A stretch of 64,000 nucleotides of DNA from Terriglobia bacterium (GTDB taxonomy: Bacteria; Acidobacteriota; Terriglobia; 20CM-2-55-15). The notes under the pieces were generated by a model. The model was not told the origin of the DNA. It worked only from the letters and a program-made list of their open reading frames with translations, and searched no databases. The stretch's first letter is position 1; each line of letters opens with the position of its first letter. The position numbers and the translations under genes are program-made. The stretch lies in NCBI GenBank assembly GCA_963664115.2, contig CAXWPJ010000002.1:256001-320000 (forward strand), written 5' to 3'. Of this stretch, positions 8,394-39,842 are shown in pieces.

Positions 8394-9437
8394 TCATTGA
8401 TCCGTTTGACAATCGTAGATCGGAATCGAATCTCCAAGAGCCAGCCAATAACCCTCGATGGTTGCGGGTTCGGTGAAGGTTTGCGGGTCAGTTACTGTTA
8501 TTTGGAAATCCAGGCGGCTCTGATCGTTGCTCACGGTAAACCGTTCCACGATTTCGACTGCCTCGCTTTGTGGCGTACCGATGGTGTCGAAGAAGGGCCA
8601 GTTGATTCGACTGGTTCTAACGACCAGGGTTCCCTCTTGCCATTCTCCTACCGAGTAACCCAGCCTTGAAGCGGGTTCGTTGGGAGGGGGCTCGGATCGA
8701 TTCAGATGGATCGTCCGCTCAATGTCGTAAAACTCGGTCCTCAGCGTAATCTGATCCCGATGATCGATGAACTCGAAAGGATGCGGATTGGTCATGATTC
8801 TCGGCATGCCTTCCGGTTCGCAACGGATCGCGAAATTGTCGAACATGTCCCATGACTCCCTTGCAGCAATCGCGGATTCCTGAAAGGGCAGGTGGGTAAC
8901 TACTCGACGAGCACGTCCACGTGGAACACTCCAGACGCGAAAAATTCCCTCACCGTCGCCGTTCAGCCCACGTTCAGCCAACAAATCTCGACCGCCAAGT
9001 ATCTCTTCCGACCATCGAGGCTGGGTTGGCCAGAGCAATACCTCACGCCCATCTGTAAACAAAATGTTGGTGGCGAGAAAGTCCAGCTCGTCGCGACTCG
9101 ATCTCCTACCGGCCACCCTCACACGCTCGCCTATTGTGAACAAGTCTTGGGTTATACCTTGGCGCTGCAAGTTATAAATAGAATTTCCATGCATGATCCG
9201 AATCTCTTCCTCACCGTTGGTATTCATCGTTTTTACAGCGATCCTAATGTGTGGGTTTCTCCACTCTAAAGCCACGAGTTCGCCTACCGCTTCAGTGATT
9301 TCGTCGACGTAACCAGCAACGGAATGGTGAGCGGACACGACGACGGGCCAACTAAAGAAGACACCAGCCATCGCAAGGCCACCAAAGAGGAGCCTCCTTC
9401 TAACCCGTTTCCGTCGTGTCGCAATTCGGTCCAGCAT
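8394..9437 (-). CDS. Fusion of a DUF6152-like domain and the beta-rich partner domain
   Basis: Signal peptide then AHHS...WRNPH; C-half has CEPEGMPR, GYSVGEWQEGTLVV, ERF, TDPQTFTEP, YDC. Confidence 0.8.
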   Translation of the reverse strand: MLDRIATRRKRVRRRLLFGGLAMAGVFFSWPVVVSAHHSVAGYVDEITEAVGELVALEWRNPHIRIAVKTMNTNGEEEIRIMHGNSIYNLQRQGITQDLFTIGERVRVAGRRSSRDELDFLATNILFTDGREVLLWPTQPRWSEEILGGRDLLAERGLNGDGEGIFRVWSVPRGRARRVVTHLPFQESAIAARESWDMFDNFAIRCEPEGMPRIMTNPHPFEFIDHRDQITLRTEFYDIERTIHLNRSEPPPNEPASRLGYSVGEWQEGTLVVRTSRINWPFFDTIGTPQSEAVEIVERFTVSNDQSRLDFQITVTDPQTFTEPATIEGYWLALGDSIPIYDCQTDQ

Positions 9438-9578
9438 GTCTTTCCCTCCGATTCCCTTGAGGTAGGTCACATGAAAACGAAGAATGTACTGCATGTCAAT
9501 CTTTGTCTACGTCAACGCTGCATGGGCTCGTGAATCATGCCATCCCAACAGAGTCGGATGGCAGACCTGTCCATCTCC

Positions 9579-9624
9579 GAAATCCATTCTCAAGTCCTGA
9601 CAAATCATCTTGTCGGACGTTGAA
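9579..9624 (+). repeat. Palindromic dispersed repeat, copy R4
   Basis: gaaatccattctcaagtcctgacaa-atcatc-ttgtcggacgttgaa. Confidence 0.95.
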
Positions 9625-9718
9625 CGATTCATTCCCAACCGTTTCGAAGCAAGGACACGCCAATCTGTCAGAAATCGAGATATTCGGAAACTCCGAAACG
9701 AGTAGGTTCCGTTGATGT

Positions 9719-10822
9719 GTGATGTCCAGGAACGATCGAATACTCACCCTGTCGTGTGAGAATAGAGTTCCGATGACTGGCACTGGCAACACGGGCAGGA
9801 TGGCTGGAGAGTCTGGCCTGTTCACGGCCTGGGAGCGGCACACCCGCCGATGGGCGCTCGTATTTGCAGTGTTGACGCTGGTGGTGTCCGCACTCGTCAC
9901 ATTCGTGTTCATGCGCACGGGTCGGGATGGGGCGGTCGCGCTTGTGTTTACGTTGATCCCGGCACTTGTGGTTTACGCCTGGTGGACACGGAGGATCCGA
10001 CGCCGGCGAGCCATCCTCCGTAAACCATTCCCACGCGAATGGGAAGCGGTACTGCAGCGAGACGTCGTCTTCTTTAGGGTGCTCGACGGATCAGACCAAC
10101 AGCGGTTTCGTCGTCAGCTACAGGTGTTTCTGGGAGAGAAGCGAATTACAGGCATCAAAGTACAGCTCGATACGACGACACGCGTGCTTGCCGCCACCAG
10201 CGCCATCATTCCCATCTTCGGATTCCCCGACTGGGAATGGGACCAGATTAACGAGGTGCTGATCTATCCGACACGGTTCGACGGCAAATTCGAGTTCGGC
10301 GACACGCGAGCTCACAACACCCTCGGCATGGTCGGAACGGGCAGTCTGAACCGGCTTATGATCCTCTCCAAGCCCGATCTGATCAACGGTTTCAGGAACC
10401 CGACCGACAAGCGGAACGTGGGTGTACATGAGTTCGCGCATCTGGTCGACAAGACTGACGGCGTGATCGACGGAGTACCGGAGGTGGGACTCAACCGGCA
10501 GGCAATCGGGCCCTGGATTGATCTGGTGCGACGCAAGATGGCAGAAATCGAGGCGGGCACCTCTGACATCAACCGCTATGCGCTGACGAACGAGGCGGAA
10601 TTTTTCGCCGTGATAGCGGAGTATTTTTTCGAGCGGCCCGTTGTTATGCAACGCAAACACCCGGCCCTTTACGAGGCTCTCGAACGTGTGTTCAACCAGA
10701 GTCTTCGCGTTCGTGCGGATGCATTTCGGAGAGAGCTGTCCAAGGGTCGGCCGAGGTTCGGTCGGAATTCGCCTTGTCCGTGTGGGAGCGGACTCAAGTT
10801 CAAGAAGTGCTGTCGGGAGTAA
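9719..10822 (+). CDS. Zinc-dependent peptidase M90 (MtfA-like) with N-terminal TM helices and C-terminal SEC-C motif; start may be 9773 or 9800
   Basis: [20 protein letters not shown] and [18 protein letters not shown]. Confidence 0.9.
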
Positions 10823-10909
10823 CCCTGTGACAGCAATCGTATTTTCACTTTCGCGCGCGACTGGCGTAATTGGGGGGCGGACCTTGTAGGGTAGAGCGGT
10901 GCTGAGCCC

Positions 10910-10963
10910 TGAAATCCATTCTCAAGTCCCGAAAAATCATCTTGTCGGACATTGAGAATTTCA
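10910..10963 (+). repeat. Palindromic dispersed repeat, copy R5 (extended arms)
   Basis: tgaaatccattctcaagtcccgaaaa-atcatc-ttgtcggacattgagaatttca. Confidence 0.95.
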
Positions 10964-11016
10964 CGGTGCTTATTGGCGTTAAGATCGCGCCGCCTGGCCA
11001 AATGCCGTTGGCCTCA

Positions 11017-11052
11017 ATCTGGTTTGAAGAACTGACCGAACGGGTGCCGGTG
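11017..11052 (+). pseudogene. Ser/Thr kinase 3' stub (WFEELTERVPV)
   Basis: tggtttgaagaactgaccgaacgggtgccggtg. Confidence 0.65.
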
Positions 11053-11115
11053 GAATGGGTCTGAGCTATTGGCTCACACTCGAATCGCTTCTCACGCACT
11101 CCCCGCCGAGAACCG

Positions 11116-13086: not shown

Positions 13087-13242
13087 CTTCAGGACCTCCA
13101 ATGTCAGAAATCGTAAGGCAAAAATGGGCTGACTGAGTCTTTACCGGATGCTAGTTTGGCCTTCCAACCATGTCAAAAGAAAATGTGCTGTGAATCGTCA
13201 ACCATCCAGATCGTCCGATACGATCACGCCCGCCCGACACCG

Positions 13243-13302: not shown

Positions 13303-13330
13303 AACAGCTCGTTCGCCCCTACCGCCCGCT

Positions 13331-13777: not shown

Positions 13778-14173
13778 ATGAAAACCAAGTGGTTCCATCG
13801 TTGGTGGATCCAAAGTCTGAAACTGGTCGGAATTCTGTTCGCGGTTTCCGCCGCCCTCTATGCGCACCATTCCGAAGTGGTATACGACAACTCCCGCACC
13901 ATCGAACTGAAGGGGACGGTGACGGAGTTCCGCTTTATCAACCCGCACGCCACTATTCATTTCACCGTGGGGAACGCGCAGGGCGTCCAAGAAGATTGGA
14001 TCGCCGAAATGGGTCCCGTGGGCGGTCTCGTCCGCAGCGGATGGAACAAGACCACGATTAAGTCGGGCGATCAGATCGAAATGGTATCTTATCCCCACAA
14101 GGACGGTCTCCACCGCATCCGGTTTGTCCGCCTGGTCGTAAACGGAGAGGTCCTCCGCGAACGCGACGAATAA
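13778..14173 (+). CDS. DUF6152-like small secreted protein
   Basis: Signal peptide, AHHS, FINPHA; GGAGG RBS. Confidence 0.85.
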   Translation: MKTKWFHRWWIQSLKLVGILFAVSAALYAHHSEVVYDNSRTIELKGTVTEFRFINPHATIHFTVGNAQGVQEDWIAEMGPVGGLVRSGWNKTTIKSGDQIEMVSYPHKDGLHRIRFVRLVVNGEVLRERDE

Positions 14174-14357: not shown

Positions 14358-15269
14358 ATGCGAAATCGTTTGCTTTTGCTTGGTTCACTGCTCGGTGTAG
14401 GAATTCTGCTGGTTGTCTCGCCCCCGACCTCGGCGCATGGAGGCCAGGCGCAGGAACAGGCCAGGCCGGTGCCCCGCCAGGCGGACGGAAAGCCGGATCT
14501 CTCCGGCATTTGGGCACGGAGTGGGTCGGTGAACCGTTATTTTACTAGCAGCGGCTCCGGCGTAAGTACGGCTGAGGAAGCCATGCGCCCCGAGGCCCGC
14601 GAGAAATACAGGGACCAGCTCGCCGCCGCAAAGGTCCGCACGATTGAGCGCGACTTATATGACCCCTACGTCAAATCCTGCGCTCCGGTCGGCATCACCC
14701 GCTTGATCAACGAGGGCGGCGGCAGCGGGCGTCCGTTCGAGATATTTCATCTCCCCAACCGCGTCTTCTTTCACTATGAGTGGGACCACTGGCCACGCAA
14801 CATCTGGATGGACGGCCGCCCGCATCCCGATCCCGCCGTCGCTCCTTCCACCTGGATGGGCCACTCCACCGCCCGCTGGGACGGCGACACGCTCGTCGTC
14901 GACACCGTCGGGTTCAACGACATCACCTGGCTCGACACCCAGGGGCATCCCCACAGCGAATCGTTGCGCCTGATCGAACGTTACCGGCCCCTGAATTACG
15001 ACACTATGGAACTCCAAGTTACCTTCGAGGACCCGGAAATCTATACCGAGGCGGTGGTCGGAAATACGCTGACATTGCGGCGGATGCCAGACGTCGAACT
15101 CCAGGAATGGGTTGTCTGCGACGACCGCATCCGCGAGATGTACGCGACCGATGTCTGCGAGATCACCGGTGCCTGGGAGTTCGAGGCCTACTGCAACCGC
15201 CGGGAACAAGGTCTGCCGATGGACGATCTGTTCAACAATCGCGGCGGCCCCACCGGTCCGCGTGAGTGA
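14358..15269 (+). CDS. Secreted beta-rich protein (DUF6152 partner family)
   Basis: GKPDLSGIW, CAPVGITR, MGHSTARWDGDTLVVDT, EDPEIYT, EWVVC. Confidence 0.85.
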   Translation: MRNRLLLLGSLLGVGILLVVSPPTSAHGGQAQEQARPVPRQADGKPDLSGIWARSGSVNRYFTSSGSGVSTAEEAMRPEAREKYRDQLAAAKVRTIERDLYDPYVKSCAPVGITRLINEGGGSGRPFEIFHLPNRVFFHYEWDHWPRNIWMDGRPHPDPAVAPSTWMGHSTARWDGDTLVVDTVGFNDITWLDTQGHPHSESLRLIERYRPLNYDTMELQVTFEDPEIYTEAVVGNTLTLRRMPDVELQEWVVCDDRIREMYATDVCEITGAWEFEAYCNRREQGLPMDDLFNNRGGPTGPRE

Positions 15270-17560: not shown

Positions 17561-18586
17561 ATGAGCGATCGATTTCTCACCCGAATGGGAGTACCGGCGA
17601 CCTGCGTTGCCCTCGTCCTGCTTGTCGGGACACCGCTTGCCGGTCAGGCACCGGACGGAGAGACGAAACGGACACCGTGGGGGGACCCGGACCTGCAGGG
17701 CGTGTACACGTTCTCGACACCGACACCCATGGAACGACCCGAAGCGCTTGGGACCCAGGAGACCTACACCGATGCTGAACTGGCCCAACTGGATACGCAG
17801 GCAGCGTCGCGGAATGCAGACCGTGCGCGTCAATCCGAGGGCCGGCCGTCAGGCGGCTATGACCGCACCTGGACGACGGGCGAACGAGGAAGCCGCACCA
17901 ATCGCACATCGCTGATCATAGACCCACCAAACGGGCTCATACCTCCGTTAACGCCCGAGGCGCAGCGGCTCGAAGCCGAGCGAAGAGCTGAAGAAGAGTC
18001 GCGGCAAGTATCGATAATCCGGGAGGGCGAGGCTGCTCTGGACCTGGTGTACAACTCCTGGAACGACCTTTCCGGGTATATCCGTTGCGTGGGACGCCCC
18101 GTACCTCGATTCGGGGGAGCGTACAACCATGGGATTCAGATTCTGCAGACTCCCGGCTACGTCGTGCTTCACTACGAGAGCATGCACGACGCTCGCATCA
18201 TACCCCTGGACGGAAGTCCGGCGCTGGACTCGAGCATCCGCCAATGGAACGGCAGTTCACGGGGCCACTGGGAGGGCGATACGCTGGTTGTCCACCTGAC
18301 TAATTTGACGGACAAGCAACTCTTCAGGGGGACGCTGCTTCCCATGGGCGACATGGAGTTTGTGGAACGCTTCACGAGGATCGACGAGAACACGGTCCGA
18401 TACGAAGTGACGGTAAACGATCCGACGACGTGGACCGAACCCTGGACCTTCGTCCTTCCCTGGAGGAGCGATGACCAATATCAACTTCCGGAACATATAT
18501 ACGAATTCGCCTGTCACGAGGGGAACTACAGAATGATGGAGGGGACGCTCAGGGGATCTCGCACGCTGCTTGAACAGACCCAATAA
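17561..18586 (+). CDS. Secreted beta-rich protein (DUF6152 partner family, long type)
   Basis: RTPWGDPDLQGV, TSLIIDPPNG, GSSRGHWEGDTLVV, YEFACHEGNY. Confidence 0.85.
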   Translation: MSDRFLTRMGVPATCVALVLLVGTPLAGQAPDGETKRTPWGDPDLQGVYTFSTPTPMERPEALGTQETYTDAELAQLDTQAASRNADRARQSEGRPSGGYDRTWTTGERGSRTNRTSLIIDPPNGLIPPLTPEAQRLEAERRAEEESRQVSIIREGEAALDLVYNSWNDLSGYIRCVGRPVPRFGGAYNHGIQILQTPGYVVLHYESMHDARIIPLDGSPALDSSIRQWNGSSRGHWEGDTLVVHLTNLTDKQLFRGTLLPMGDMEFVERFTRIDENTVRYEVTVNDPTTWTEPWTFVLPWRSDDQYQLPEHIYEFACHEGNYRMMEGTLRGSRTLLEQTQ

Positions 18587-18683: not shown

Positions 18684-19100
18684 ATGCGAATCATAAAACT
18701 GCCTGTTGTTGTTCTCGGCCTGTGCTGTTTACTGTTGCTGACCGTCGCGCCGGCCGGGGCGCATCATGCCTTTGCCGCGGAGTATGACTCCACCCGGCCA
18801 ATCGAGTTCCAGGGGACGATCACGAAGGTGGAACTGATAAATCCACACAGTTGGATCACGATAGACGTCCGGCTCGACGACGGCACGACGGAATCCTGGG
18901 AAATCGAAGCCGGCGCTCCCAACTCTTTGTACAGGCGAGGCTTTACGCGGGATTCCCTGCCGATTGGAACAGAGGTCACGGTCCGGGGTTACAGGGCCAA
19001 ATACGAAGGATTGAGGCGGGCCAACGGCGGGAGCATCACGATGTTGGACGGATCCACGATTTTCCTGGGAGGCTCCAATCCGAACAATCGGGACCGGTAA
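18684..19100 (+). CDS. DUF6152-like small secreted protein
   Basis: AHHAFAAEYD, INPHSWI, EAGAPNSLYRRG. Confidence 0.9.
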   Translation: MRIIKLPVVVLGLCCLLLLTVAPAGAHHAFAAEYDSTRPIEFQGTITKVELINPHSWITIDVRLDDGTTESWEIEAGAPNSLYRRGFTRDSLPIGTEVTVRGYRAKYEGLRRANGGSITMLDGSTIFLGGSNPNNRDR

Positions 19101-20784: not shown

Positions 20785-21095
20785 GCCAACATACAGGAAC
20801 TGACCCTTTGCTTAGCAATAACTCTCCCGTGTATATCGATCTGCCGGAATATCGCGACTCCCCGACGCCACACACTCAATCATGGAAAGGCACAAAACCC
20901 GGCCACGATGAGATCAGCATCGACAGGTGATCCTGGAAACCACCGGCAGCCGCCTGAATACGACGCCGGAAAACGGCGCATGGGTCACCCCAATATCTGA
21001 CTCTTTGCTTTCTTCTTCGGGGCTGAGGCTATAAAATTTTCCCCATCTTTCAACATTACGTGATAACCGATCGGGCGATCACAATCGGAGGGTAT

Positions 21096-22415
21096 ATGGT
21101 TCAAAGGAAGGCAACGATGCGACTGGTCCTATGTTTCCTGACAATAATGTTGGCCACGGAGGCGAGCTGGGCACAGTCAACCCAGACAACGTATGTCAGT
21201 TTCGGACGTGCCAATGCTCTGCTGGTAGAGCCCGCGGAGCCGGGCCCCAATAGTCACATCGCGCTTGTATACAACCATCCGGGCACGAGTTTGAACCTGC
21301 TGTTGGATCCGGTAAACAACTTTGATCACCGATCCGGGCCCGAACTGGCCAGCCGTGGCTACCGCGTGCTGTTGCTGAATCACAACTCTTCCAGAACGGG
21401 ATACGAACCGATCTTTCCTGCAATCGGCCAGTCCATCGAGTATCTCCGAAACCTCCCGGGCGTGGACACGGTATTGCTGCTGACCCACAGCATCGGCGGA
21501 CCCGTGATGGCTTTCTATCAAAACGTCGCGGAAAACGGGCCGGGCGCGTGCCAGGGACCAGAGAAAATCTATTCCTGCCGGGGTGAACTGACCGATCTCC
21601 CCACCGCAGACGGCATTGTGTTTCTGGATGTACATCTTGGTGAGGGATTCCGGTTTTTGACTTATGTGGATCCGGCTATAGACGATGAAGCGAATCCAAT
21701 GCACAGAAATGCCGCGCTCGACATGTTCGCCAAGGCCAACGGCTACGATCCCGCAGACGGTGGGGCAACCTACAGCCAGGCGTTTCTGAAGGATTTCTTT
21801 GCAGCTCAAGGAGACCGAAACGAAAGGTTGATTCAGGCGGCGGAGAAGCGTCTGTCCGCTATCGATAACGAGACGAGTCTGTACAAGAACGATGAGCCCT
21901 TTGAAGTGGCGTCCCTGATCGCCCGTGCTCTTCAGTCTGACGTGAGTTTGATATCGCGGACACGCTCCGCACATCCCCTGCTCAAGGCCGACGGGACTGT
22001 GGAAACCCAAATTGTCCATTCGGTTCGTCCTCCGAGCGGGAGGCATGACCGCTTGGGAACTTACGAGCAATATTCGGTCCGTCAGTTCCTGGCGAGTGAA
22101 GCACTTCGTACGACAGCAGACTACATGATGACGGAGGATTCGATCACAGGTGTCGATTGGGCTTCTTCGATCAACAGCGCTCCTTCAAATCTGGAGGGCG
22201 TCCAGGTGCCGGTGTTGATCCTGACGATGTCGTGCCACTATTTTGTCGTGCCGAACGAGCTTCTTTTTGAGCATGCCGCCAGCAAAGACAAACAGCTCGT
22301 CTACGTCGAAGGCGCCTCGCATTCCATGACCCCGTGCCGTCCGGAATTCGGCGACACGGTGAAACGCACATTTGACTATGTGGATGGGTGGCTCAGCGAC
22401 AGTGAGAGATTTTGA
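21096..22415 (+). CDS. Secreted alpha/beta-hydrolase fold protein
   Basis: Signal peptide; THSIGG nucleophile elbow; C-terminal VEGASH. Confidence 0.8.
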   Translation: MVQRKATMRLVLCFLTIMLATEASWAQSTQTTYVSFGRANALLVEPAEPGPNSHIALVYNHPGTSLNLLLDPVNNFDHRSGPELASRGYRVLLLNHNSSRTGYEPIFPAIGQSIEYLRNLPGVDTVLLLTHSIGGPVMAFYQNVAENGPGACQGPEKIYSCRGELTDLPTADGIVFLDVHLGEGFRFLTYVDPAIDDEANPMHRNAALDMFAKANGYDPADGGATYSQAFLKDFFAAQGDRNERLIQAAEKRLSAIDNETSLYKNDEPFEVASLIARALQSDVSLISRTRSAHPLLKADGTVETQIVHSVRPPSGRHDRLGTYEQYSVRQFLASEALRTTADYMMTEDSITGVDWASSINSAPSNLEGVQVPVLILTMSCHYFVVPNELLFEHAASKDKQLVYVEGASHSMTPCRPEFGDTVKRTFDYVDGWLSDSERF

Positions 22416-23584: not shown

Positions 23585-24424
23585 TTAATCCTCAGGGCTT
23601 ACCGCAACGTCTCGGAACCCTGCGTTGTAGCCTTCGACTTCGTTGATGGGAGCACATATACCTTCGGTGATCCCGCTGAACAAACCCGACCATTCGAAAA
23701 ACGTGTAGTTTTCCGACGGCTCCCGCTCAAACCTTCGCGGGGCCGCCGGCCACGGGGCGGCGTAGTATGTCGGATCGTAGGCCGTCATCTCGTGTTCGAT
23801 GACATCGGGGCTGACCCGCGTGTAGCGTTCCTCAATCCGAGTGGTGAGGGATACGGGATGGCCCGGCCGGTCCAGCCAGGCTCTCTCGTCGAGACCGACG
23901 GTATCGACAACCAGCGTGTCTCCTTCCCACCGGCCAACCGAGTGCCCGTACCAGGCCGGTCCGAGGAAGTCGAGGTTGTCCCCGGATGGCAGTGCCCGGC
24001 CGTCCATCCAGATGTAGCGGACCCGGTGCTCCCATTGGTAGATCTGCAGGATTCTATCGGGCAGCATGATCATTTCCAGGGGTTCGGCATCGATCAGGAG
24101 CTTTGGAAAACCCTGGGGATTGCACTGGTAGTCGGGGTCATTGGACAGATACGCATAGGGTACGTCGGGCTGAAAGGGATGAAAGCGGGCGGCGCCGGGC
24201 GATGGCACGCGGCCGCCCATGACATCCAGTGCGGCTGGCGTAAGCTCGGGCCGGGTATCCAGCCCGAAACCCTGAAACGCGCTGGCCCCGCCGATTTCCC
24301 AGATTCCCGAATAATCCCGGGCATCAAAGTCCCCCGCTTGGTCCTGTCCCCATGCCTCGGGAAGCAAGCCCAACGCAAGAACCATTACCGACGGCAATAT
24401 AATAAAGATGATTCGCTTGCACAT
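23585..24424 (-). CDS. Secreted beta-rich protein (DUF6152 partner family)
   Basis: DYSGIW, CNPQGFPK, YGHSVGRWEGDTLVVDT, EGIC. Confidence 0.85.
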   Translation of the reverse strand: MCKRIIFIILPSVMVLALGLLPEAWGQDQAGDFDARDYSGIWEIGGASAFQGFGLDTRPELTPAALDVMGGRVPSPGAARFHPFQPDVPYAYLSNDPDYQCNPQGFPKLLIDAEPLEMIMLPDRILQIYQWEHRVRYIWMDGRALPSGDNLDFLGPAWYGHSVGRWEGDTLVVDTVGLDERAWLDRPGHPVSLTTRIEERYTRVSPDVIEHEMTAYDPTYYAAPWPAAPRRFEREPSENYTFFEWSGLFSGITEGICAPINEVEGYNAGFRDVAVSPED

Positions 24425-26899: not shown

Positions 26900-27307
26900 A
26901 TGTTGAAACGAAGTATTGGCGCCCTGACCGCAGTATTCATCCTGGTCCTCTTCGGGACGCCGGCACTGGCGCATCACTCGTTTGCTGCGATATTTGACAA
27001 GGACCAGCCATTCACAGTGACGGGCGTGATCAACAAGGTGGACTGGAAAAACCCCCACATGTACTTCTACGTCGACGTGACTGGAGAAGATGGCGCAGTC
27101 GTCACATGGGGCTTTGAGAGCTATCCCCCGACGATGATGATACGCCAGGGTTGGTCACGGAACACTGTTACGCCGGGAGATCCGGTTACGGTAACGGGTT
27201 GGCGGGCGCGCAGAGGCTCCCGGCCCGTAGCGGGAGGCAACAGGATGACGCTTGCCGACGGTACAGTGATGACAATCGGCGCCAGTTCTGAAGGGGAAAA
27301 CCGATGA
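26900..27307 (+). CDS. DUF6152-like small secreted protein
   Basis: AHHSFAAIFD, WKNPHMY. Confidence 0.9.
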   Translation: MLKRSIGALTAVFILVLFGTPALAHHSFAAIFDKDQPFTVTGVINKVDWKNPHMYFYVDVTGEDGAVVTWGFESYPPTMMIRQGWSRNTVTPGDPVTVTGWRARRGSRPVAGGNRMTLADGTVMTIGASSEGENR

Positions 27308-28170
27308 CCGCCGATCAAAAATCGGGTTCAGGTATGTTCAAGGAGCATTGCCTCATGACGCATCGTCTTGTATCGGGTGCCGCAGGGTGTCTCACGCTGA
27401 CGCTTCTGGTTTTCCTGCCGTTCACGTTTGCGGGTACAGTGCGCGGGCAAGCGGAGGAAAGTGCCACGACTCGGAACGCATCTCAAGCAATACCGCGCAC
27501 CTCAGACGGCAGGCCCGATTTATCCGGCATCTGGCAGTCCAACGTGCTGGACATATCGAACTTCACTCTCGAAAGAGAAGAAAGATCTTCGGCGAACAGA
27601 GTCGCAAATCCAGGAGGTGATCTTCCCTACCGGCCGGAGGCTTTGGAGCGAGTCCGGCAACTCACCGAGGCCGATGATCCCATGCTCCGGTGCATTCCAC
27701 GTGGAATCCCACGCCAGACAGGAACTTCAAGTCCAGTTCGAATCGTTCAACTTTCGGGAGAGATAATCATTCTCTACGAAGCGGAGCACCGCTTCCGTAT
27801 CATCCCGACAGACGGCCGCCCGCATCCCGACGACTGGTATCCGACGTACATGGGGGACTCCGTCGCCGCATGGGACGGCGACACACTGATTGTCGATGTG
27901 ATCGGCTTCAACGATGAGACCTGGATTCATCGCCTCGGAACCTTTCACACCGAGGATCTGCACGTTGTCGAGCGCTATCATCTCAGCGATGCAAACACCC
28001 TGGAGTATGAAGCCACCGTTGAAGATCCGAACGTCCTGACCGGACCATGGTCAAAAACAGTCACGTTGCGGAGACGGCCACCGGGGGACCGCATACTGGA
28101 ATCGATCTGCGTGGATATTCAGGATGCCGAGTATTTCCGGGAGGTCTTTGACGCACTCGAAAACCAGTGA
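27304..28170 (+). CDS. Secreted beta-rich protein (DUF6152 partner family)
   Basis: ATGA overlap with the upstream gene; GRPDLSGIW, CIPRGIPR, MGDSVAAWDGDTLIVD, ESIC. Confidence 0.88.
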   Translation: MTADQKSGSGMFKEHCLMTHRLVSGAAGCLTLTLLVFLPFTFAGTVRGQAEESATTRNASQAIPRTSDGRPDLSGIWQSNVLDISNFTLEREERSSANRVANPGGDLPYRPEALERVRQLTEADDPMLRCIPRGIPRQTGTSSPVRIVQLSGEIIILYEAEHRFRIIPTDGRPHPDDWYPTYMGDSVAAWDGDTLIVDVIGFNDETWIHRLGTFHTEDLHVVERYHLSDANTLEYEATVEDPNVLTGPWSKTVTLRRRPPGDRILESICVDIQDAEYFREVFDALENQ

Positions 28171-29094: not shown

Positions 29095-30084
29095 ATGCAA
29101 AACAGATTCAGAGACGCGATACTCGTAATTGTGACCGCCGCCATCGTGGGCAGTGCATCGCTGGCCTTGATGCTGACGTCCGACCTCAGCACGCTCTCCC
29201 AAAGCGGGGCGTCACAATTGATACGAACCGCAGACGGCAAACCCGATTTCAGCGGCATATGGCAAACCCACAGCACCGCGAATTGGGACCTTCAGTCCCA
29301 CTCAGCGCGTCCGCTGGTCGCCCAGGCCGGAGTGAACGCTAATTTCCAGATACTGGCGGCCCCGGTTGTCGCACTCGGCACCGTGGGGTGGGTGCCGCCG
29401 GGAATGGGCGTGGTGGAAGGCGACGAAATTCCCTATCAACCCTGGGCCCAGGAGCGGAAGAGGGACAATGCGGCCAACTGGCTGGATCGCGACCCGGAAA
29501 TAAAGTGCTATATGCCCGGGGTGCCGCGGGCGATGTATCTTCCCTATCCCTTCCAGATTGTTCAAAGCACAAACAAGATCATGATGGTGTTCGAGTTTGC
29601 AAACGCCCAGAGGACGATCAATCTCGACGCAGTCGATCCCTATCCGGGCGAGGCATTTATGGGATACTCGGTTGGGCACTGGGAGGGCGATACGCTGGTC
29701 GTCGAAGTCACCAATTTCACACCCTACACCTGGTTCGACCGGTCCGGAAACTTTCACAGTGACGCTCTGCATGTTGTCGAACGATACACGCCCATCAGCC
29801 GCGATGCGATTCGCTACGAAGCGACTATTGAAGACTCCAAGGTATTCACCCGACCGTGGACCATCAGCCTACCGCTCTACCGCAGGCTTGAGCCGGATGC
29901 CCAGGTCCTGGACTTCCGGTGCTTCGAGCATGTCGAAGAAACGCTTTATGGACATCTACGCCGGGAGCCACTCGTCACGCGCTGGGAAGGCCGGACCATG
30001 GACATCGACATCACGCGTAAGGTTCCACCGGGTGAAGACGTATACGAAATACATTGGTCGGGCAATCCGCCTCTTGAACAATAA
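29095..30084 (+). CDS. Secreted beta-rich protein (DUF6152 partner family)
   Basis: GKPDFSGIW, DPEIKCYMPGVPRA, MGYSVGHWEGDTLVVE, DFRC. Confidence 0.88.
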   Translation: MQNRFRDAILVIVTAAIVGSASLALMLTSDLSTLSQSGASQLIRTADGKPDFSGIWQTHSTANWDLQSHSARPLVAQAGVNANFQILAAPVVALGTVGWVPPGMGVVEGDEIPYQPWAQERKRDNAANWLDRDPEIKCYMPGVPRAMYLPYPFQIVQSTNKIMMVFEFANAQRTINLDAVDPYPGEAFMGYSVGHWEGDTLVVEVTNFTPYTWFDRSGNFHSDALHVVERYTPISRDAIRYEATIEDSKVFTRPWTISLPLYRRLEPDAQVLDFRCFEHVEETLYGHLRREPLVTRWEGRTMDIDITRKVPPGEDVYEIHWSGNPPLEQ

Positions 30085-30120: not shown

Positions 30121-30564
30121 GTGAACATGACAAGGAGAATGAATCCAATGCCAGCAAGATTAGCCATTACCGTTGTGAGTGTTGGCGTACTTCTGATTCT
30201 GGCCGCAGTACCCGCGTCGGCACATCATGCATTCGCGGCCGAATTCGACGCCAATAACCCGGTCCATTTCACGGCCAAGGTCGTGCGGATGCAATGGACG
30301 AATCCCCACGCCTGGATCCACGTCGAAGTGACATTACCCGATGGCACATTGGAAAGATGGGCCGTTGAGGCAGGCACTCCGAACGTCTTGTACCGGCGGG
30401 GATTTACGAGAGACTCGCTTGTGGCGGGAACCGAGATCGTCGTCGATGGCTACCGGGCAAAGGATGGTTCACGCCGCGCAAACGGCAGGGACCTCACCCT
30501 TCCTGACGGCCGGACTCTTTTCCTGGGATCGTCGGGGACAGGCGCGCCGGTAGAGCGCCCGTAA
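30121..30564 (+). CDS. DUF6152-like small secreted protein (start may be 30139 or 30148)
   Basis: AHHAFAAEFD, WTNPHAW, EAGTPNVLYRRG. Confidence 0.9.
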   Translation: MNMTRRMNPMPARLAITVVSVGVLLILAAVPASAHHAFAAEFDANNPVHFTAKVVRMQWTNPHAWIHVEVTLPDGTLERWAVEAGTPNVLYRRGFTRDSLVAGTEIVVDGYRAKDGSRRANGRDLTLPDGRTLFLGSSGTGAPVERP

Positions 30565-30773: not shown

Positions 30774-31247
30774 TCAGGAAAACCCGATCCAGCGCCCGCC
30801 CCATCCGACACCCGCCCACAATGCCAGTGAGACCAAGGCAGCGATCTTGCCCTCGAGTACGGGAGTCGACGTTGCCTCAAGCGCGGCTCGACGCCGCACG
30901 GTGAACGTGAACACGATCACCAGCAACAGCGAAGTCATCTTCACCCAGAAGGCAGTACTGTAGTAGCACTTGATCGCTTCTGACAGGAACAGCGGAATAC
31001 CCGAGGCCAACATCATCACGAGACTGCCCAGCATCCACGGTTGGGCATCTTTGGAAAGTTGCGCCACGGAACGGCCCTTGAGACCCAGGCCCAAGAGTCG
31101 CAAATCGACAAGCAGCACCGCTCCACCCATCACTCCGAGACCCACCAGATGGAAGGCTTCGATCACCGGAAACAGCCAGAGCGAATTGCGAATCGCCTCG
31201 CCGACGGCCAAGCCCTCGCACCATTCAAAAAACGGCAGCAACGACAT
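30774..31247 (-). CDS. DUF6644-like 4-TM membrane protein
   Basis: SLWLFPVIEAFHLVG, DLRLLG, GRWIGF. Confidence 0.85.
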   Translation of the reverse strand: MSLLPFFEWCEGLAVGEAIRNSLWLFPVIEAFHLVGLGVMGGAVLLVDLRLLGLGLKGRSVAQLSKDAQPWMLGSLVMMLASGIPLFLSEAIKCYYSTAFWVKMTSLLLVIVFTFTVRRRAALEATSTPVLEGKIAALVSLALWAGVGWGGRWIGFS

Positions 31248-31813
31248 CAGTACAACGACTCGACCGGCACGCAGCTGGTGAGAAAATTAACGATCGCCGC
31301 TTGCGGCTGTCTGTCGCAATCAAACCAGTTGTACGCAATCATTCTTCCCGAAAAGATAATTCCGAACCACAACACCAGGGAAAGGGCGCCGGCGGCTCTG
31401 GCCGCTTTCGGAGTCACCCCGTCAAGATTCCATTGCGCAATGCGCCGATAGACTCTGCTGTTAAAGACCCACACATTCAAACCGGCCAGCAACAGCAGAA
31501 TCACCTTGAAGCGAAAAAAAATATTCTGGTAAGTCCGCAGGGGTATCGCAGAAAACAGCAGTGCTCCGCTGACGACCATGATGACAAAGCCGGCGACCGT
31601 CCACGGCAACAGGCGCCGGTAAACTTCCTGTACCGGCACCTGCCGCATAATCCAACCAAGCAGGCGCAGGTCGAACATTACGGCAAAACCGACAAACAGA
31701 AACAGCGCCCAGACGTGAACCGATTCGACGAGAGGATAGGCGTATCGAGATTCATGAAGCCCGATGCTCCACGACGAATCTGCCAGACGTTCGAAAAAAG
31801 CGAGAAGAGACAT
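31247..31813 (-). CDS. DUF6644-like 4-TM membrane protein
   Basis: YPLVESVHVWA, DLRLLG, GRMIAY; paralog of the downstream gene. Confidence 0.85.
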   Translation of the reverse strand: MSLLAFFERLADSSWSIGLHESRYAYPLVESVHVWALFLFVGFAVMFDLRLLGWIMRQVPVQEVYRRLLPWTVAGFVIMVVSGALLFSAIPLRTYQNIFFRFKVILLLLAGLNVWVFNSRVYRRIAQWNLDGVTPKAARAAGALSLVLWFGIIFSGRMIAYNWFDCDRQPQAAIVNFLTSCVPVESLY

Positions 31814-31829: not shown

Positions 31830-32942
31830 TTACCCGCCTCCACCGGTGGCGTTGTCCTGGGTCGCCGGATCTGGGCCTCGCCCTTCCGCGAAAGCTTTCT
31901 CCGCGGCGCGAGTGTTCACGAGCATGCCGATCATGCCGTAGTTGCCCTCATGGCAGCCTCCCTCATAGACCTGATTCGCTTGATCGCTGTTTTTTACCAG
32001 TTCCTGGACAGCCGTGAACGGTGCTGTGAAGGTCGTCGGGTCCTCTATCGTGACCTGAAACGCCAGCGTATCGGCATCGATCCGCCTGTAGCGTTCGATC
32101 AAGTGCAAGTTCTCGCGCGATCCATGGAAATCCGTCTGTTGCTCAAAATTGGTAACGTCGACAACCAGGGTGTCGCCCTCCCACCGACCCCGGGCGTCGC
32201 CGTAGCGCTGCCTCATGTGTTGGGGAAGATGGGGACGGTCCGTAATGGGTATAATCCGGCTGAAACCCTGCCCCTGGCCCATATCGTAATTGATCCCGAC
32301 AGAGCCGGGAGACTGCACAATCCGCGCCACACCCCCAAAGGTCCCGGACTGGAGTAACACCGGCAGACTGAAGCCAAAACATCGTTCGGGCCCGCTTCGG
32401 TCTTCAGGACCATCGGTGCGATTGATTCTATCGAGATTGTAATCTGGAGAAGGTTCCGATCGCCTGGGTGAGATCGGTCCGGGTCTACCCCGGTAAGTGC
32501 CTTGCAGCAAGGCCTGGAGAAACTCTCGTTTCTCGGCAATTCTGATCTGGGCCTCGGATGTCAGCGGTGGAATTTTCCCGTCTGGCGGGTCGACAATCTG
32601 CGAAGTGCGCGTCCCCCTCGACATGGACGGGTCACCGAACCAGTGGTCGTTGTAGGCAAGGGCGACATCCCTTTCGGTCCCCGCGGCCTCGCGGCTGTCA
32701 CGACCCGGCAGTTGGGACCGCTCGACCAGTTGGGACTCGGCAGCAACGATTTCCTCTTCGGTCAGAAACTCTCTCGTGCCGAACTCTTCCGGCCGTTCCA
32801 GAGGCGTAACGAAGGGGTTGTTCCAAATCCCCTGCAGATCCGGATCGCCCCACGGTGTCCGGAGTGTTTGACCCGCAGCGGGCGCCGGTGACAGCGACAG
32901 GACAACGCATGCGCCGAATAACGCAAAACCAGTCATTTTCAT
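31830..32942 (-). CDS. Secreted beta-rich protein (DUF6152 partner family, long type)
   Basis: RTPWGDPDLQGIW, TSQIVDPPDG, GDARGRWEGDTLVVD, YEGGCHEGNY. Confidence 0.88.
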   Translation of the reverse strand: MKMTGFALFGACVVLSLSPAPAAGQTLRTPWGDPDLQGIWNNPFVTPLERPEEFGTREFLTEEEIVAAESQLVERSQLPGRDSREAAGTERDVALAYNDHWFGDPSMSRGTRTSQIVDPPDGKIPPLTSEAQIRIAEKREFLQALLQGTYRGRPGPISPRRSEPSPDYNLDRINRTDGPEDRSGPERCFGFSLPVLLQSGTFGGVARIVQSPGSVGINYDMGQGQGFSRIIPITDRPHLPQHMRQRYGDARGRWEGDTLVVDVTNFEQQTDFHGSRENLHLIERYRRIDADTLAFQVTIEDPTTFTAPFTAVQELVKNSDQANQVYEGGCHEGNYGMIGMLVNTRAAEKAFAEGRGPDPATQDNATGGGG

Positions 32943-33371
32943 CTCATGTCCCTCCATTACAGATGGCCATCATATCACCAACTTCGGGGAAGGTATTCCC
33001 ATCCGCAGAAGTGAATGGTGACCTACTGATATGCAGGAAACGAACTTGGAACAGCAGTCGCGGATTGATCCCATCATCCTCTTACTCTGACGCCTCGGTT
33101 TCACCTCTTTCATTCTGAATACCGTCCCCCCCGCACGGGGGGACCGTGCGGGGCTTGCTGTGCTCTTTGAGAGATGTTCCGTTTTGCACTTATAGGGCCC
33201 GCGATCATGATGATCGCGGGCGTCGCCGGTCGTTCGGACAGGATGTCCGATTGAACGACCGAGCGAAATCTTCCGTGGCAGGGATATTATGTACCTACAG
33301 GAAAGCCCCCACGTTCGTCCCCAATACTGAAACAAGTTGAAAACCACAGGCGCAGACCCGACAATCACCGG

Positions 33372-35586: not shown

Positions 35587-35771
35587 GCTGCAGTCTTACA
35601 TGCTCACAGAACAGGCCGCTCCTTTTGGCGAGGACGCTTTGATCCACAGTGCCAAGAGTAAGACGCGAGCGGCCTTTGTGACCTTCCCTCTCTACCAGTG
35701 TTCGCTAGAAGGTACACGAAATTAAGTACAGCTCAGTTGCTTTTTCAGGTGGGACTGGATGACAGGTAGCG

Positions 35772-36733
35772 TCAGCCTGACGATGCCTTACCGGGCTGTT
35801 CCCAAAATTCTGAGTGCCGGAGTCTATCCATATCGTCAGGATTGATTTCGTAGCAGTATTCAGACCCTGGGAAAGATCCCGCATGGACCTCGGAGACGTA
35901 TTCCTCGACGGCCATCTGTGTCAAGGTCAGCAGCCCATCCTTGCGCTCCTCTCTTCCCATCTGGCGGACATCAGCGTAATCGGAGATGTGGCTGAGGAAC
36001 TTGGATGCGACTTGGGGGATGTAGCACTTGGCGAACTTGGGGCGAAACGGTTGATAGAATCCCAGCACGTCATGAATGATCATGAGCTGGCCATCAACCT
36101 TGTTGCCAGCCCCGATTCCGAGGACCGGGATCTCAAGCGCCCGCGCCACTTGTCCAGCCGGTTCGATGGGCATCGCTTCAAGTAGAATCGCCACGGCACC
36201 GGCCCCCTGTAATGCGAACGCGTCTTCCATCGTGGCGTCGAAGCTCTCCAGGGTCTTTCCCTGGACTCGATAACCTCCGAAGGATGTCGCACTCTGTGGA
36301 GTGAGACCCAGGTGTCCGAAGACGAGGATGCCCGCGTCTGCGAGAGCCTTGACACGCGATTCAACGCGACGGCCACCTTCCAGTTTGACCCCGTCACAGC
36401 CGGCCTCCTTAACGAAGCGCAGCGCGTTGTGGACGGCCTCCGCGTCGCTGACCTCGTAAGAACCTTGCGGCATGTCACCGACGATGAAAGTATCTGGAGC
36501 CCCACGTCGCGCCGCCTTCGAGAGCATGATCATCTCATCCATCGTTACAGGATTCGTTGTTTCGTGGCCCAGTTGCACCATGCCACCCGAATCGCCGACG
36601 AGAATCATATCGACACCCGCCTGCTCGGATACGTAGGCGAGGGGAAGGTCGTAAGCCGTAATCCAGGCAACCGGCTCACCATTCCGCTTCATTTTTTCAA
36701 CTCAAAGAGATTCAGCTTGTTCCTGCGTTTCAT
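35772..36733 (-). CDS. panB: 3-methyl-2-oxobutanoate hydroxymethyltransferase; apparent frameshift in an A-run near 36692
   Basis: ITAYD, ILVGDS, GDMP, KLEGG, GHLGLTPQ, GIGAG; upstream MKRRNKLNLFELKK is one A short of being in frame. Confidence 0.9.
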
Positions 36734-37008
36734 GGGGAACTCATCCTCGACGGCATTCGAAGCCGCTTCGTGCCCTCGGCGCGAGTCAGACAGTCGAAAC
36801 GGACGGCTATCGCCTGCCGCGTTTCTTAGCTCTCTGCGGGTTCGACTCCGCAGCGCCTTTCGGTAGCGGTATATTCGGAATCAACTGCAGGGGCACAGAG
36901 TACCGGCGTTCCTGACGCTCGGAACAGCGTCCTGGACGATACCGGTCACCTCCGCTTTCATGCGGTACTTCAATTTTATATCAAAGCGGCCTTAAGGGAT
37001 TCAACCGT

Positions 37009-37033
37009 GTCCCAGAAAATCATCTTCGCTGAC
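37009..37033 (+). repeat. Possible degenerate palindrome core R13
   Basis: gtcccagaaa-atcatc-ttcgctgac. Confidence 0.4.
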
Positions 37034-37075
37034 AAGACCCATCGGCGCCACTGTCGATATCTCTGTTACAGGTCA

Positions 37076-38995
37076 CTAATACGCGATCGCGTAGCAGTCT
37101 CGGCGTGGATCCGCTGCTGCCAGTCGATTCTGGGTGAGCGGATCGATCATGACGGCCGTCGCGCAGCCCGACATTCCAAAGGTACGCAGCCGGTCCACGT
37201 CATGGCCGCGGGCTCGCAACTCGTCATAGACAACATCTGGAATCGGGGTCTCGACCCTCAGCCGGTTGAAGTCAGGCGAGTGCGGCCAGAACGAACCGTA
37301 CAAGTGCAGGGTTTGCACCCGCCCTCGCTCCAGAGCCGCATGTAGATTCGGATACCAATCGTCCCAAAACTCAACGATGCTGAGAAAGGCTTGCAGAATC
37401 GTCTGTTCCTGGTTGTCACCACCGGGCGTTCCCAGAGCCATCATCGGCACGTCACCGTCGAAAACGAGAGTCGGAGTCAAGGTGTACCGTGGCCGCGCGT
37501 GTGGGCGGATCTGGTTCGCCCGCGCAGGATCCAGCCAGAATTGCTCGCCGCGGACGCTCATGCCTATTCCGGTTTCTCCGAGGATAACGGCACCACCAAT
37601 CCAACCGCCACTGGGCGTCACGTCGAAGATGTTCCCGTCTTTGTCGATGATTGCAATGTGTGTCGTGTCCTTCATGACGCCGGTAGAGTCCTGACCGAGT
37701 GAAGCCAGCCTGTTGGCAGCAGAGACTTCCAGTGCGGCGTCGCCTGCGGTGGCATCTTCGATATCGGCTTTCCAGTAGTTCCACTGGTCAACGTTCGAAT
37801 CGTATGGCAGTGGGTCGCCGGCGACAAAAGACCTGGACGCGTGCAGCGGATCGATGAGTTTCGCCCGCTCGCTGGCGTATTCTTTCGACAGCAGCCCCTC
37901 GGAAGGCACCGCCACGAATGTGGGATCTGCATAATAGGTATCCCTGTCCGCGTAAGCCAACTTCATCGCCTCGACCACGGTGTGGATATAATCTGCACTC
38001 GCATGTCCCATCGCGTTCAGGTCGAAATTCTCAAGAATGTTGAGCATTTGAAGGAGAGCGGGGCCCTGACTGCCGAAACCATGCTTGTATATGGTGTAGC
38101 CGCGGTAGGTGGTTTTCGCGGGTTCCTCAATTCTCGCAAAGAACTCGGCAAAATCGGAGTAGGCAAACGGTGCTCCGTTGTTCTGAAGGAAGCTGACCAT
38201 CTCACGGGCAACATCGCCCTTGTAGAAGAGATCGCGCGCAGCCCCAATCCCGGCAGCGCGTCCACTGGAACTCGCCGCACGCTCGGCCTCAACCATTCGC
38301 TTGAGTGTTCTGGCGAGACTCGGGAGCTTGATTGTCTCGCCGGCCTTGTAGAGTGACCCATCGGGTTTGAACCAGTACTGTTGATTGTCCGGCCAGGCCT
38401 CGAAGAATTGCAGATTGTTCTCAATCGCCCGCGCGGTGCTCGGACGGAGCGGAAAACCGTGCTCGGCGTACTCAATCCCTTGTGCGGCGACCTCTTCGAA
38501 GCTCATCGTTCCCCAGCGCTCGAGCACCGTCAACGCAGCGTGGACAGCGCCCGGCACAACTGCAGGATCGAGTCCTTCACCCTGGAGCGTCTTGTTCCTG
38601 GATCGGTACCAATCGACGCTGACCTCGCCCGGCGCCCAACCCTGACCGACCACTGAGGTCACTCTCTGGTCATCCCTCGGGTAGACCAACACCAGCGCTT
38701 CGCCTCCGAGACTGTAAAGATCCTGTTCGAGTACCCCGCCTGCAATCAAGGCTGCGACTCCAGCGTCAAACGCGTTTCCGCCCTTCAGGAGGATGGCGAA
38801 GGCCGTAGCCGTCGTCAGCGGGTGACCCGTGGATATACCACCGGACGGACCCATCACAGCGGGTCGAAGCGCAGATCCCGCGGGCTGCTGATCCTGGACG
38901 GGCACCTGTCGCGCGTCGGCGACAATTCCCATCAACCCGATTGCTAAACCGGCAATCGTCAAGACCGCCACAAAAGCACTGAGTTCACGTATCAC
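37076..38995 (-). CDS. ggt: Gamma-glutamyltransferase family protein
   Basis: GGNAFDAGVA, KLAYADRD, catalytic DTTH, GTPGGD, AADPR. Confidence 0.9.
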   Translation of the reverse strand: MIRELSAFVAVLTIAGLAIGLMGIVADARQVPVQDQQPAGSALRPAVMGPSGGISTGHPLTTATAFAILLKGGNAFDAGVAALIAGGVLEQDLYSLGGEALVLVYPRDDQRVTSVVGQGWAPGEVSVDWYRSRNKTLQGEGLDPAVVPGAVHAALTVLERWGTMSFEEVAAQGIEYAEHGFPLRPSTARAIENNLQFFEAWPDNQQYWFKPDGSLYKAGETIKLPSLARTLKRMVEAERAASSSGRAAGIGAARDLFYKGDVAREMVSFLQNNGAPFAYSDFAEFFARIEEPAKTTYRGYTIYKHGFGSQGPALLQMLNILENFDLNAMGHASADYIHTVVEAMKLAYADRDTYYADPTFVAVPSEGLLSKEYASERAKLIDPLHASRSFVAGDPLPYDSNVDQWNYWKADIEDATAGDAALEVSAANRLASLGQDSTGVMKDTTHIAIIDKDGNIFDVTPSGGWIGGAVILGETGIGMSVRGEQFWLDPARANQIRPHARPRYTLTPTLVFDGDVPMMALGTPGGDNQEQTILQAFLSIVEFWDDWYPNLHAALERGRVQTLHLYGSFWPHSPDFNRLRVETPIPDVVYDELRARGHDVDRLRTFGMSGCATAVMIDPLTQNRLAAADPRRDCYAIAY

Positions 38996-39449
38996 CCGGC
39001 CCTCCTTTGCTGACGCACGCTAATATTCGTGTCTTTCAACGACAAGCGAAAATCGATGAGAAAATTTGGAAACAGTTCGCATTGGATGAATAAGATTGCC
39101 GGTGGAATTTGAGGTCACTCAAAGCGGCCCATGTCCAGCTTGCGGCGACACAGGCCTGGGGATTGTCGCGTGCCGATCTTCGAGAGGCTGGTCCGTCAGT
39201 GGTTCGGACGCATTCACACAACATCGAAGAAACGAATGCTTGGTCTCGAAAAGTCCAACTCCCGACAAGAGGGTTTGCCGACAGACGCTAATGGGCATAT
39301 TTCCGCGAGCGGTCCGTGTCCGGTAAAGTGACTATCGTTCTTCGAGAACCGCAAGAGGGGTGAGAATCGGAGCGTACACCACTCCCGGACTCCCGGGCTC
39401 ACTGCCTGTTCGCATCAAAATGTCTGCGTCAATGCGATCGTCAGCCCGG

Positions 39450-39842
39450 CTAGTCCCACTCCTTCTCGACTCCATGGCCGCGTGCCAGATCACCATGTAA
39501 GGGTGTCACATAGCCCAGAAGACAGCCATTGGAGCCGTCCCTGAGTCGATGACAGCGCACGCTGATCGTGTCGCCCGTTCTGACGTCTTGGCGCTGGATT
39601 TCGTTGCGTAAGAGCCCTTCGGGACCGGTGGCTTCCAGAGCCCACACTGCGCTCTGACCTGCGTCGTCCGTGATATCGAGGTAGATCCAGGAATGCGGGC
39701 GGACCAAATGCACTTCCCTGACCGTACCCTCATAAGTCGTCCACTGCGATACGTCGTAGTTGCCATGGGAATGGTGCGCTAATACCGGCATGGCTAGGAC
39801 GACTACACAAACGGCTGCAAGGCCCCATGATTTAAACTGCAT
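39450..39842 (-). CDS. DUF6152-like small secreted protein
   Basis: AHHSHGNYD, VRPHSWI. Confidence 0.85.
   Translation of the reverse strand: MQFKSWGLAAVCVVVLAMPVLAHHSHGNYDVSQWTTYEGTVREVHLVRPHSWIYLDITDDAGQSAVWALEATGPEGLLRNEIQRQDVRTGDTISVRCHRLRDGSNGCLLGYVTPLHGDLARGHGVEKEWD

Follow-up and report, generated by a model that had tools for sequence, protein, structure and literature searches.

The window analysed here is a stretch of 64,000 nucleotides (positions 256,001 to 320,000 of contig CAXWPJ010000002.1) from the 4.89-Mb genome of a Terriglobia bacterium, hereafter G000, whose nearest relatives are labelled Terriglobia, Acidobacteriota, at 81-84% identity. Between positions 8394 and 40553 it carries repeated copies of a secreted-type module, in which a small protein with two histidines at its predicted mature N-terminus (A, family DUF6152) is accompanied by a predicted beta-barrel partner (B) or, in one clade, by a protein of predicted PsbP fold (C). 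A and B are duplicated as a pair and amount to a substantial part of the genome, and we tentatively regard the module as a two-subunit periplasmic metalloenzyme family.

The gene cluster in the window

The genes of the module and the membrane proteins associated with it are as follows.

8394-9494, minus strand: A-B fusion, DUF6152 plus barrel; probably starting at 9437, with mature His1 at 9329 and a His in place of Glu47
13778-14173, plus strand: A (DUF6152), mature HHSE...NPH
14358-15269, plus strand: B barrel, partner of A13778
16663-17526, plus strand: B, subtype B1 of the core cassette
17561-18586, plus strand: B, subtype B2 of the core cassette
18684-19100, plus strand: A (DUF6152), HHAF type, in a core cassette B1-B2-A
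23585-24424, minus strand: B barrel without an adjacent A
26900-27307, plus strand: A (DUF6152), mature HHSF...NPH; His1 at 26972
27304-28170, plus strand: B, partner of A26900; true start likely 27355
29095-30084, plus strand: B, subtype B1
30121-30564, plus strand: A (DUF6152), HHAF type; start may be 30148
30774-31247, minus strand: DUF6644 membrane protein, His in the first helix and an invariant Lys
31247-31813, minus strand: second DUF6644, in stop/start overlap with the first
31830-32957, minus strand: B of subtype B2, lying upstream of the two DUF6644 genes; probable start 32942
39450-39842, minus strand: A (DUF6152) of the clade marked by HHxH and a Cys pair; paired with C instead of B
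39912-40553, minus strand: C, secreted protein of predicted PsbP/Mog1/DcrB fold, partner of the HHxH-clade A; no Pfam match; invariant His140

All six A domains, i.e. those of the open reading frames (ORFs) at 13778, 18684, 26900, 30121 and 39450 and the N-terminal part of the fusion, match PF19649 (DUF6152) with 39.8-108 bits, membership being defined by the Pfam gathering cut-off of 27 bits. Their translations share the same order: a signal-like hydrophobic leader, Ala, His-His and, at a distance of 27-28 residues, (N/R)PH. The seven B proteins all carry G(I/V)(W/Y) and both Cys residues, and GxSxxxW(E/D)GDTL is exact in six of them, with Ala in place of Ser in 31830; none of the seven matches a Pfam or NCBIfam family. 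The Pfam entry for DUF6152 describes no function, and we found neither DUF6152 nor DUF6644 named in the open literature that was searched.

The initial annotation of this DNA had proposed five small His-His proteins with the (N/R)PH motif, seven partners defined by the motifs above and one fusion, all of which are borne out. It missed the second type of partner, C, whose gene lies just beyond the region 8394..39842 that it covered, and the DUF6644 pair. Its description of A and B as repeatedly adjacent is correct in general, but not for 39450, whose neighbour is C, nor for 23585, which has no His-His neighbour. The translational coupling that it also suggested is probably not present at the ATGA overlap of 26900/27304, because a Shine-Dalgarno-like AAGGAG lies upstream of the ATG at 27355, and because the orthologue of B27304 at locus L001 lacks the upstream ATG and starts at the equivalent of 27355. 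The clear stop/start overlap of the region is that of the two DUF6644 genes at 31247.

The fusion gene together with its flanks (8297-9623) is present at 99.3% identity on two other contigs, C6 and C11, and is a recent triplication. A promoter and terminator scan returned chance-level results. In four RNA runs of one study (X1-X4, share 0.08-0.13), low-depth and mostly near-identical contigs cover A, B and C genes, and one of them bridges the C-A junction; since these may represent DNA carry-over, we make no claim of expression.

Expansion of the module and exchange of its partner

Iterated profiles converged at 126 A and 145 B ORFs in the genome, from which one overlapping weak frame was dropped, leaving 125 A, 8 of them fusions. 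A and B genes occupy 4.0% of the genome and number about 260 of some 4,240 called genes, where gene calls and secretion labels come from simple in-house scripts. The paralogs are highly divergent, with a median identity of 30% for A and 27% for B. A co-directional B is located within 350 nt of 85 of the 117 unfused A genes, while 1000 random placements gave 3.3 on average and at most 11, so that the pairing noticed in the window is far over chance genome-wide. The distances among A proteins correlate with those among their B partners (mirror-tree r=0.56 for 82 pairs, against at most 0.16 in the null), and in 53 of 82 cases the nearest paralog of an A has one of the three nearest B partners. 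Because the distances correlate and the partners of nearest paralogs agree, the A-B pair is the unit of duplication.

The profile of the fusion finds 17,455 clusters at 50% identity. Among 295 fusion-length proteins, A comes before B in 290 and B before A in none, although the search was seeded by an A-B fusion; this order implies that His1 stays free. No longer B fusions were found in a search limited to 666-2000 aa, which is weak evidence. A tandem B-B fusion adjoins an A gene elsewhere in the genome (G000:C2:333461-335044) and hints at barrels acting in pairs.

Among 18 genomes of the same family as G000, 12 hold from 45 to at least 112 DUF6152 matches, 3 hold 1-3 and 3 have none; matches also occur in one of 12 genomes of other families in the class and in none of 14 controls. 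Related loci were also recovered from Vicinamibacterales, Bryobacteraceae, Gammaproteobacteria and Alphaproteobacteria.

One clade of A has exchanged its partner. A39450 has no barrel partner, and its co-directional neighbour is the secreted protein C. By neighbour clustering, all 12 copies of family C in the genome lie near A/B genes and 11 of them are direct co-directional neighbours. The ten genome A genes that have both HHxH and a Cys pair make up a single clade (SH-aLRT 96) in a quick tree, from which two rows without the motif and four duplicates were omitted and in which one mis-parsed row was included; all ten lie beside C and none beside B, and one further A neighbour of C is of the HHST type. 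The same holds for 176 A matches in other genomes, where 11 of 12 HHxH/Cys-pair genes adjoin C and none adjoins B, while HHxH occurs in none of 110 B-adjacent genes; because the C loci had been retrieved deliberately, the C-adjacent count is enriched. An obligatory dependence of C on A was considered and rejected, since seven C loci in genome G150 have no A within 1.5 kb. The occurrence of the same His-His tip with two unrelated partner folds argues that A carries the conserved function and that the partner is exchangeable.

Conserved residues, predicted folds and surrounding genes

His1, His2 and His27 are kept in 123, 124 and 124 of the 125 genome copies of A, as defined by the hidden Markov model, and in 139, 139 and 141 of 141 diverse fusions. 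A further count of 592/597 for His is partly circular, its rows having been chosen via the motif, and is not used as evidence. Ala precedes His1 in 113 of the 125 copies, after a hydrophobic core; by this sequence rule, the His lies at the predicted mature N-terminus, as in brace proteins. Glu47 is found in 122 of the 141 fusions and is otherwise replaced mainly by Gln, Asp or His, the last being the case in the fusion of the window. Because the three His residues are nearly invariant and Glu47 is common, A appears to contain a candidate 3-His/Glu N-terminal metal site and does not appear to be a CopC/LPMO homologue. The fusion, A, C and DUF6644 have no sequence match in the PDB. The Atlas offers MamS/MamX at 0.80 for A, and unnamed clusters with glyoxalase and DUF3471 below 0.9 for B, all of which are leads only.

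The model of the mature fusion has a predicted local distance difference test (pLDDT) of 94 and a predicted template modelling score (pTM) of 0.88. Its residues 8-95 match oligonucleotide/oligosaccharide-binding (OB) folds, with single-stranded DNA-binding protein at Z 8.3 (root-mean-square deviation, rmsd, 2.9; 81 aligned) and also lysyl-tRNA synthetase entries, and the A domain is accordingly a predicted OB fold. Couplings within A (654 rows, effective number 372), namely V4-S77, G6-D80, V4-L85, N49-L85 and I28-G48, would indirectly place the N-terminal segment of residues 4-8 beside the His27 and Glu47 strands. The B part, residues 127-298, matches barrels of the fatty-acid-binding protein (FABP) type (Z 9.7, rmsd 3.6, 108 aligned) as well as nitrobindin (Z 8.1); B is thus predicted to be an FABP-like, up-down beta-barrel with an N-terminal GxW strand, in a family without a name.

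The near-invariant residues of B are Cys170, Cys307, Arg205, Gly224, Ser226, Gly228, Trp230, Glu262 and Asp281, and W133 of the N-terminal GxW strand is present in 449 of 489 B rows. A GxW strand with a hairpin is the signature of FABPs. Since these residues fit the strand, the hairpin and a Cys pair, without an invariant His, the motifs of B seem to be structural, marking an FABP-like barrel with a likely disulfide bond. Between the first B strand and Cys170 lie 6 to 155 residues in the 80 B proteins that were measurable, and this segment may serve as a natural specificity lid. Together, about 125 paralogs at about 30% identity and lids of such variable length suggest many ligands, rather than one metal. 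Two loci combine divergent A proteins (HHSFAM/HHSYAM) with very long-lid B proteins (G000:C9:89861-95814 and C12:345358-348585); close to the former is a HupE/UreJ permease that carries an N-terminal-His domain, which is an anglerase architecture.

C has 1,386 homologues and an invariant His140. Its model (pLDDT 95) superimposes on cyanobacterial PsbP (2xb3) with Z 11.7 and rmsd 3.0 over 128 residues. Foldseek matches to PsbP/Mog1/DcrB-fold proteins range from E 6e-5 to 1e-3. The predicted alpha/beta sandwich thus agrees with this group in fold only.

Of 20 DUF6644 genes, 15 are found no more than two genes away from A/B (p 7e-11). DUF6644 genes occur in 17 of 22 genomes, all 17 with DUF6152, and are missing in four genomes with no or a weak DUF6152 match and in G008, which has few DUF6152. 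In the single-copy genomes G018 and G025, the cassette consists of B1, B2 (and a further B), an HHAF-type A and two DUF6644 genes; G138 and G150 have similar B-A-DUF6644 cassettes, and in G000, HHAF-type A is accompanied by B1 and B2 genes at five loci, of which the window holds two. A His is conserved in 45 and a Lys in all 46 of 46 DUF6644 sequences. In HemJ, the haem is ligated by His and Lys. The DUF6644 profile matches HemJ weakly (probability 33.5, E 4.4e-4; reversed control E 0.37), with His-His and Lys-Lys aligned, and HemJ is a b-type haem protein according to an excerpt of PMC13564367. A second alignment of the DUF6644 profile, to a CopD-like set, has probability 93.8 and E 1.8e-7; that set is impure in that it contains one HemJ and mostly generic clan members. 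No HemJ was found in the 41 genomes of the phylum sample; CopD (PF05425) has no match in G000 and is present in 2 of 22 genomes. Three DUF6644 proteins of G000 have an extra N-terminal membrane domain (G000:C12:259763, C2:349872 and C5:120182), with HxxLNH(F/W)P in two of the three.

Other genes near A/B are modestly enriched, which bears out the initial annotation in placing the module among periplasmic catabolic enzymes. Among secreted-like genes, those near A/B include NHL (12/28), metallo-beta-lactamase (MBL)-fold (15/43 and 12/33) and amidohydrolase (7/18) proteins; together with GSDH, pyrroloquinoline quinone (PQQ), HbpS and two cytochrome c families, these reach p 0.001-0.045, uncorrected. 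In the CytoC_RC-like cytochrome family, four of five copies are near A/B, and one sits in the G025 cassette. A gene for a TonB-dependent receptor (TBDR) lies within the G150 cassette. Two unnamed secreted families without Pfam match, L223 and L224 (G000:C9:25655 and C4:121147), are also enriched near A/B (5/6 and 7/13 copies). In G025, a small secreted protein starting with HEGH (L241:8609-8986), with several Cys and His and no Pfam match, is encoded between A/B and the DUF6644 pair.

The window contains several other genes of interest. An M90 metallopeptidase (MtfA-like) with a SEC-C motif (9719-10822, plus strand) is divergent from the fusion. The gene next to the orphan B23585 (22596-23306, minus strand) encodes a Tat-signal protein that weakly matches thiosulfate dehydrogenase TetH (E 5e-4), and a secreted protein of 451 aa (21060-22415, plus strand) shows an alpha/beta-hydrolase-like motif by eye, with no Pfam or NCBIfam match. 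A TraB/PrgY/GumN family protein is encoded at 6508-7704 on the minus strand, the longer plus-strand ORF 6454-7932 being its shadow, and a ribosomal protein S1-like protein with four S1 RNA-binding domains at 969-2510, also on the minus strand. Further downstream are a NapA-like molybdopterin oxidoreductase with a small c-type cytochrome after it (44186-47100, plus strand), a CobN/Mg-chelatase, DUF2149 and MotA/ExbB cluster (49017-54587, minus strand), which may be a porphyrin metal-extraction system, and two IS1380-type (DDE_Tnp_1_4) transposases (41001-42533 and 55434-56966), a family with 79 called copies in the genome.

A putative metalloenzyme family and its relation to known proteins

The module itself is established by its export-type N-terminus, conservation, predicted folds, linkage, co-divergence, A-then-B fusions and the partner switch, and from these we infer metal binding, a physical complex and catalysis. 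We tentatively favour a two-subunit periplasmic metalloenzyme family, probably of redox chemistry. Predicted signal cleavage would free His1 of the small OB-fold A, which would hold one metal ion via His1, His2, His27 and probably Glu47. The co-inherited partner, usually an FABP-like barrel with a highly variable lid and, in the HHxH clade, the PsbP-fold protein, would supply the substrate pocket. In chemical terms, the family may oxidise a variety of small organic solutes and possibly pass the electrons on through the DUF6644 membrane pair and c-type cytochromes, and the module would work alongside PQQ dehydrogenases, lactonases and metallo-hydrolases. The initial annotation had likewise proposed a periplasmic metallo-enzyme or redox family diversified for many substrates; of this, an exported and strongly diversified pair of proteins in which an N-terminal His site is conserved is upheld, while the enzymatic and redox roles stay conjectural.

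Several observations weigh against this assignment. No His is invariant in B, and the residues that are may have a structural role only. Although the first paired coevolution run connected A 48-60 to B 176-216 (S50-H183, z 7.1; shuffled maximum 3.9), the inter-domain couplings were not replicated between fusions and separate A-B pairs. Taken as a class, secreted CxxCH proteins show no enrichment near A/B (12/56, p=0.26). G008 holds A without DUF6644, a DUF6644 match at 1e-8 is missing in three of the five genomes reached through A loci, and the match of DUF6644 to HemJ is below that to the CopD-like set. In addition, according to PMC12537917, the secreted N-terminal-His families DUF4198 and DUF6702 show weak or no oxidase or peroxidase activity, and are read as metal carriers.

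Other functions could be served by the same site. Divalent ions in octahedral or tetrahedral geometry are well served by three His and a Glu, as in cupins. With its partner, A might perform Lewis-acid chemistry, as a Zn, Co, Ni or Mn hydrolase or lyase acting on esters, lactones or amides of many small solutes, and the enriched secreted neighbours are mostly hydrolytic (NHL, MBL-fold, amidohydrolase); we consider this unlikely, because it leaves the DUF6644 pair and the cytochrome c of the minimal cassette unexplained. The module could instead be a non-catalytic periplasmic ligand catcher, in which the metal of A binds a donor atom of the solute and B shapes the pocket, so that solutes pass from TBDRs to enzymes or transporters. 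The resemblance of B to ligand-binding barrels (bile-acid and fatty-acid binding proteins, nitrobindin), the large, lid-variable paralog sets, which fit binding specificity, and the TBDR gene of the G150 cassette all point in this direction. However, TBDRs are not enriched near A/B among secreted genes (8/37, p=0.32), for which reason we also rejected a TBDR/SusD-like role, and couplings among hydrophobic inner residues of B (F264 with V237, M179 and L196) suggest a fairly filled barrel; we rate the catcher, too, as rather improbable.

Metal scavenging in the manner of CopC/CopD, DUF4198 or anglerases, with A capturing Cu, Ni or Co and handing it to the DUF6644 pair as a permease, seems to us no more probable than the hydrolase. 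It accords with the alignment of DUF6644 with the CopD-like set and its weak match to DUF2214, with the HupE/UreJ gene near one divergent A/B locus, and with the His1-His2 and distal His pattern of A, which resembles a nickel site (below). Nevertheless, the capture of a few metals poorly explains more than 100 divergent paralogs with cognate, co-diverging partners, and only 20 DUF6644-like genes exist for about 125 A genes. Copper uptake by a genuine CopC/CopD system was rejected, as G000 has no linked CopD (PF05425) and DUF6644 is a distant relative only. Finally, the three His and the Glu might bind no metal and form an interface or a cofactor-free acid-base centre, which we regard as very improbable: the invariant His lies exactly at the predicted mature N-terminus, the fusion order leaves it unblocked, and replacement of Glu by His, Asp or Gln is what metal ligands typically show.

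The favoured metalloenzyme reading can be extended to a new modular class, a bolder proposal that we hold to be doubtful. An OB-fold catalytic tip (His1-His2-His27-Glu, unlike described braces) would sit on exchangeable recognition subunits of unrelated fold, would be wired to the membrane via a His/Lys haem-binding DUF6644 heterodimer, and would provide more than 100 specificities per genome for oxidising dissolved organic matter in uncultured Acidobacteriota and Proteobacteria. If true, N-terminal-His metal chemistry would gain a new scaffold, an OB fold that carries the metal site and can change partners, and the module could account for a large share of the unknown secreted proteome in these bacteria. 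The single-copy cassette and the B-versus-C partner switch are small systems open to direct testing.

In comparison with known systems, B shares 108-122 residues with FABP/calycin barrels (bile-acid binding protein 2qo4, nitrobindin 3ia8, NanoKAZ 5b0u) at Z 8.1-9.7 and rmsd 3.0-3.6, but differs in its identity of about 10-12%, its long variable lid, its invariant Cys pair, the absence of an invariant His and its bacterial OB-fold partner. We rejected B as a nitrobindin, since its barrel has no invariant haem-ligating His. C likewise differs from PsbP/Mog1/DcrB-fold proteins in its identity of 10-15%, its lack of a Pfam match and its linkage to the HHxH DUF6152 clade. DUF6644 resembles CopD/HemJ-like four-helix membrane proteins, as its profile aligns with both and its helix-1 His and helix-3 Lys align with HemJ, and is distinguished by its occurrence in tandem pairs.

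For A, the initial annotation had suggested a copper His brace of the CopC/LPMO/PmoB type and a fold search to examine it. CopC and LPMO are beta-sandwiches. The predicted fold of A is an OB barrel and not a brace-type Ig-like sandwich, A has no Pfam or PDB sequence match to the brace families (LPMO, CopC, PmoF), and three invariant His with a frequent Glu exceed a two-His brace; no feature singles out copper, and CopD was not found in the genome. A shares with histidine-brace proteins (LPMO, CopC, PmoF1, YcnI), DUF4198, DUF6702 and Ang-1/2 its secretion, predicted N-terminal His and distal conserved His, and departs from these brace and signal-strapping families in its OB barrel, invariant His2, frequent Glu47, cognate partner and more than 100 copies. 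The classical brace, which consists of His1 and one more His according to PMC10952591, does not account for this invariant His2. A three-His site has been modelled for DUF6702 in PMC12537917, where DUF4198 and DUF6702 prefer Ni, and DUF6152 is not named in parts 1-2 of the four results parts or in five supplementary files of that paper. Within the open literature that was searched, we found no paper that pairs 'histidine brace' with 'OB-fold'.

The nickel site of NikM, as described in PMC3945884, draws on the amine of the N-terminus, the amide of residue 2, His2 and one distal His, and the same planar arrangement could be formed in A by its N-terminal amine, residue-2 amide, His2 imidazole and distal His. 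Unlike NikM/CbiM, membrane S components of energy-coupling factor (ECF) transporters with Met1-His2, A is predicted to be a soluble, signal-cleaved OB fold with His1, so that membership in that family was rejected and the likeness is one of site and not of homology. As an analogy of geometry, the NikM site nevertheless seems closer to A than the classical brace.

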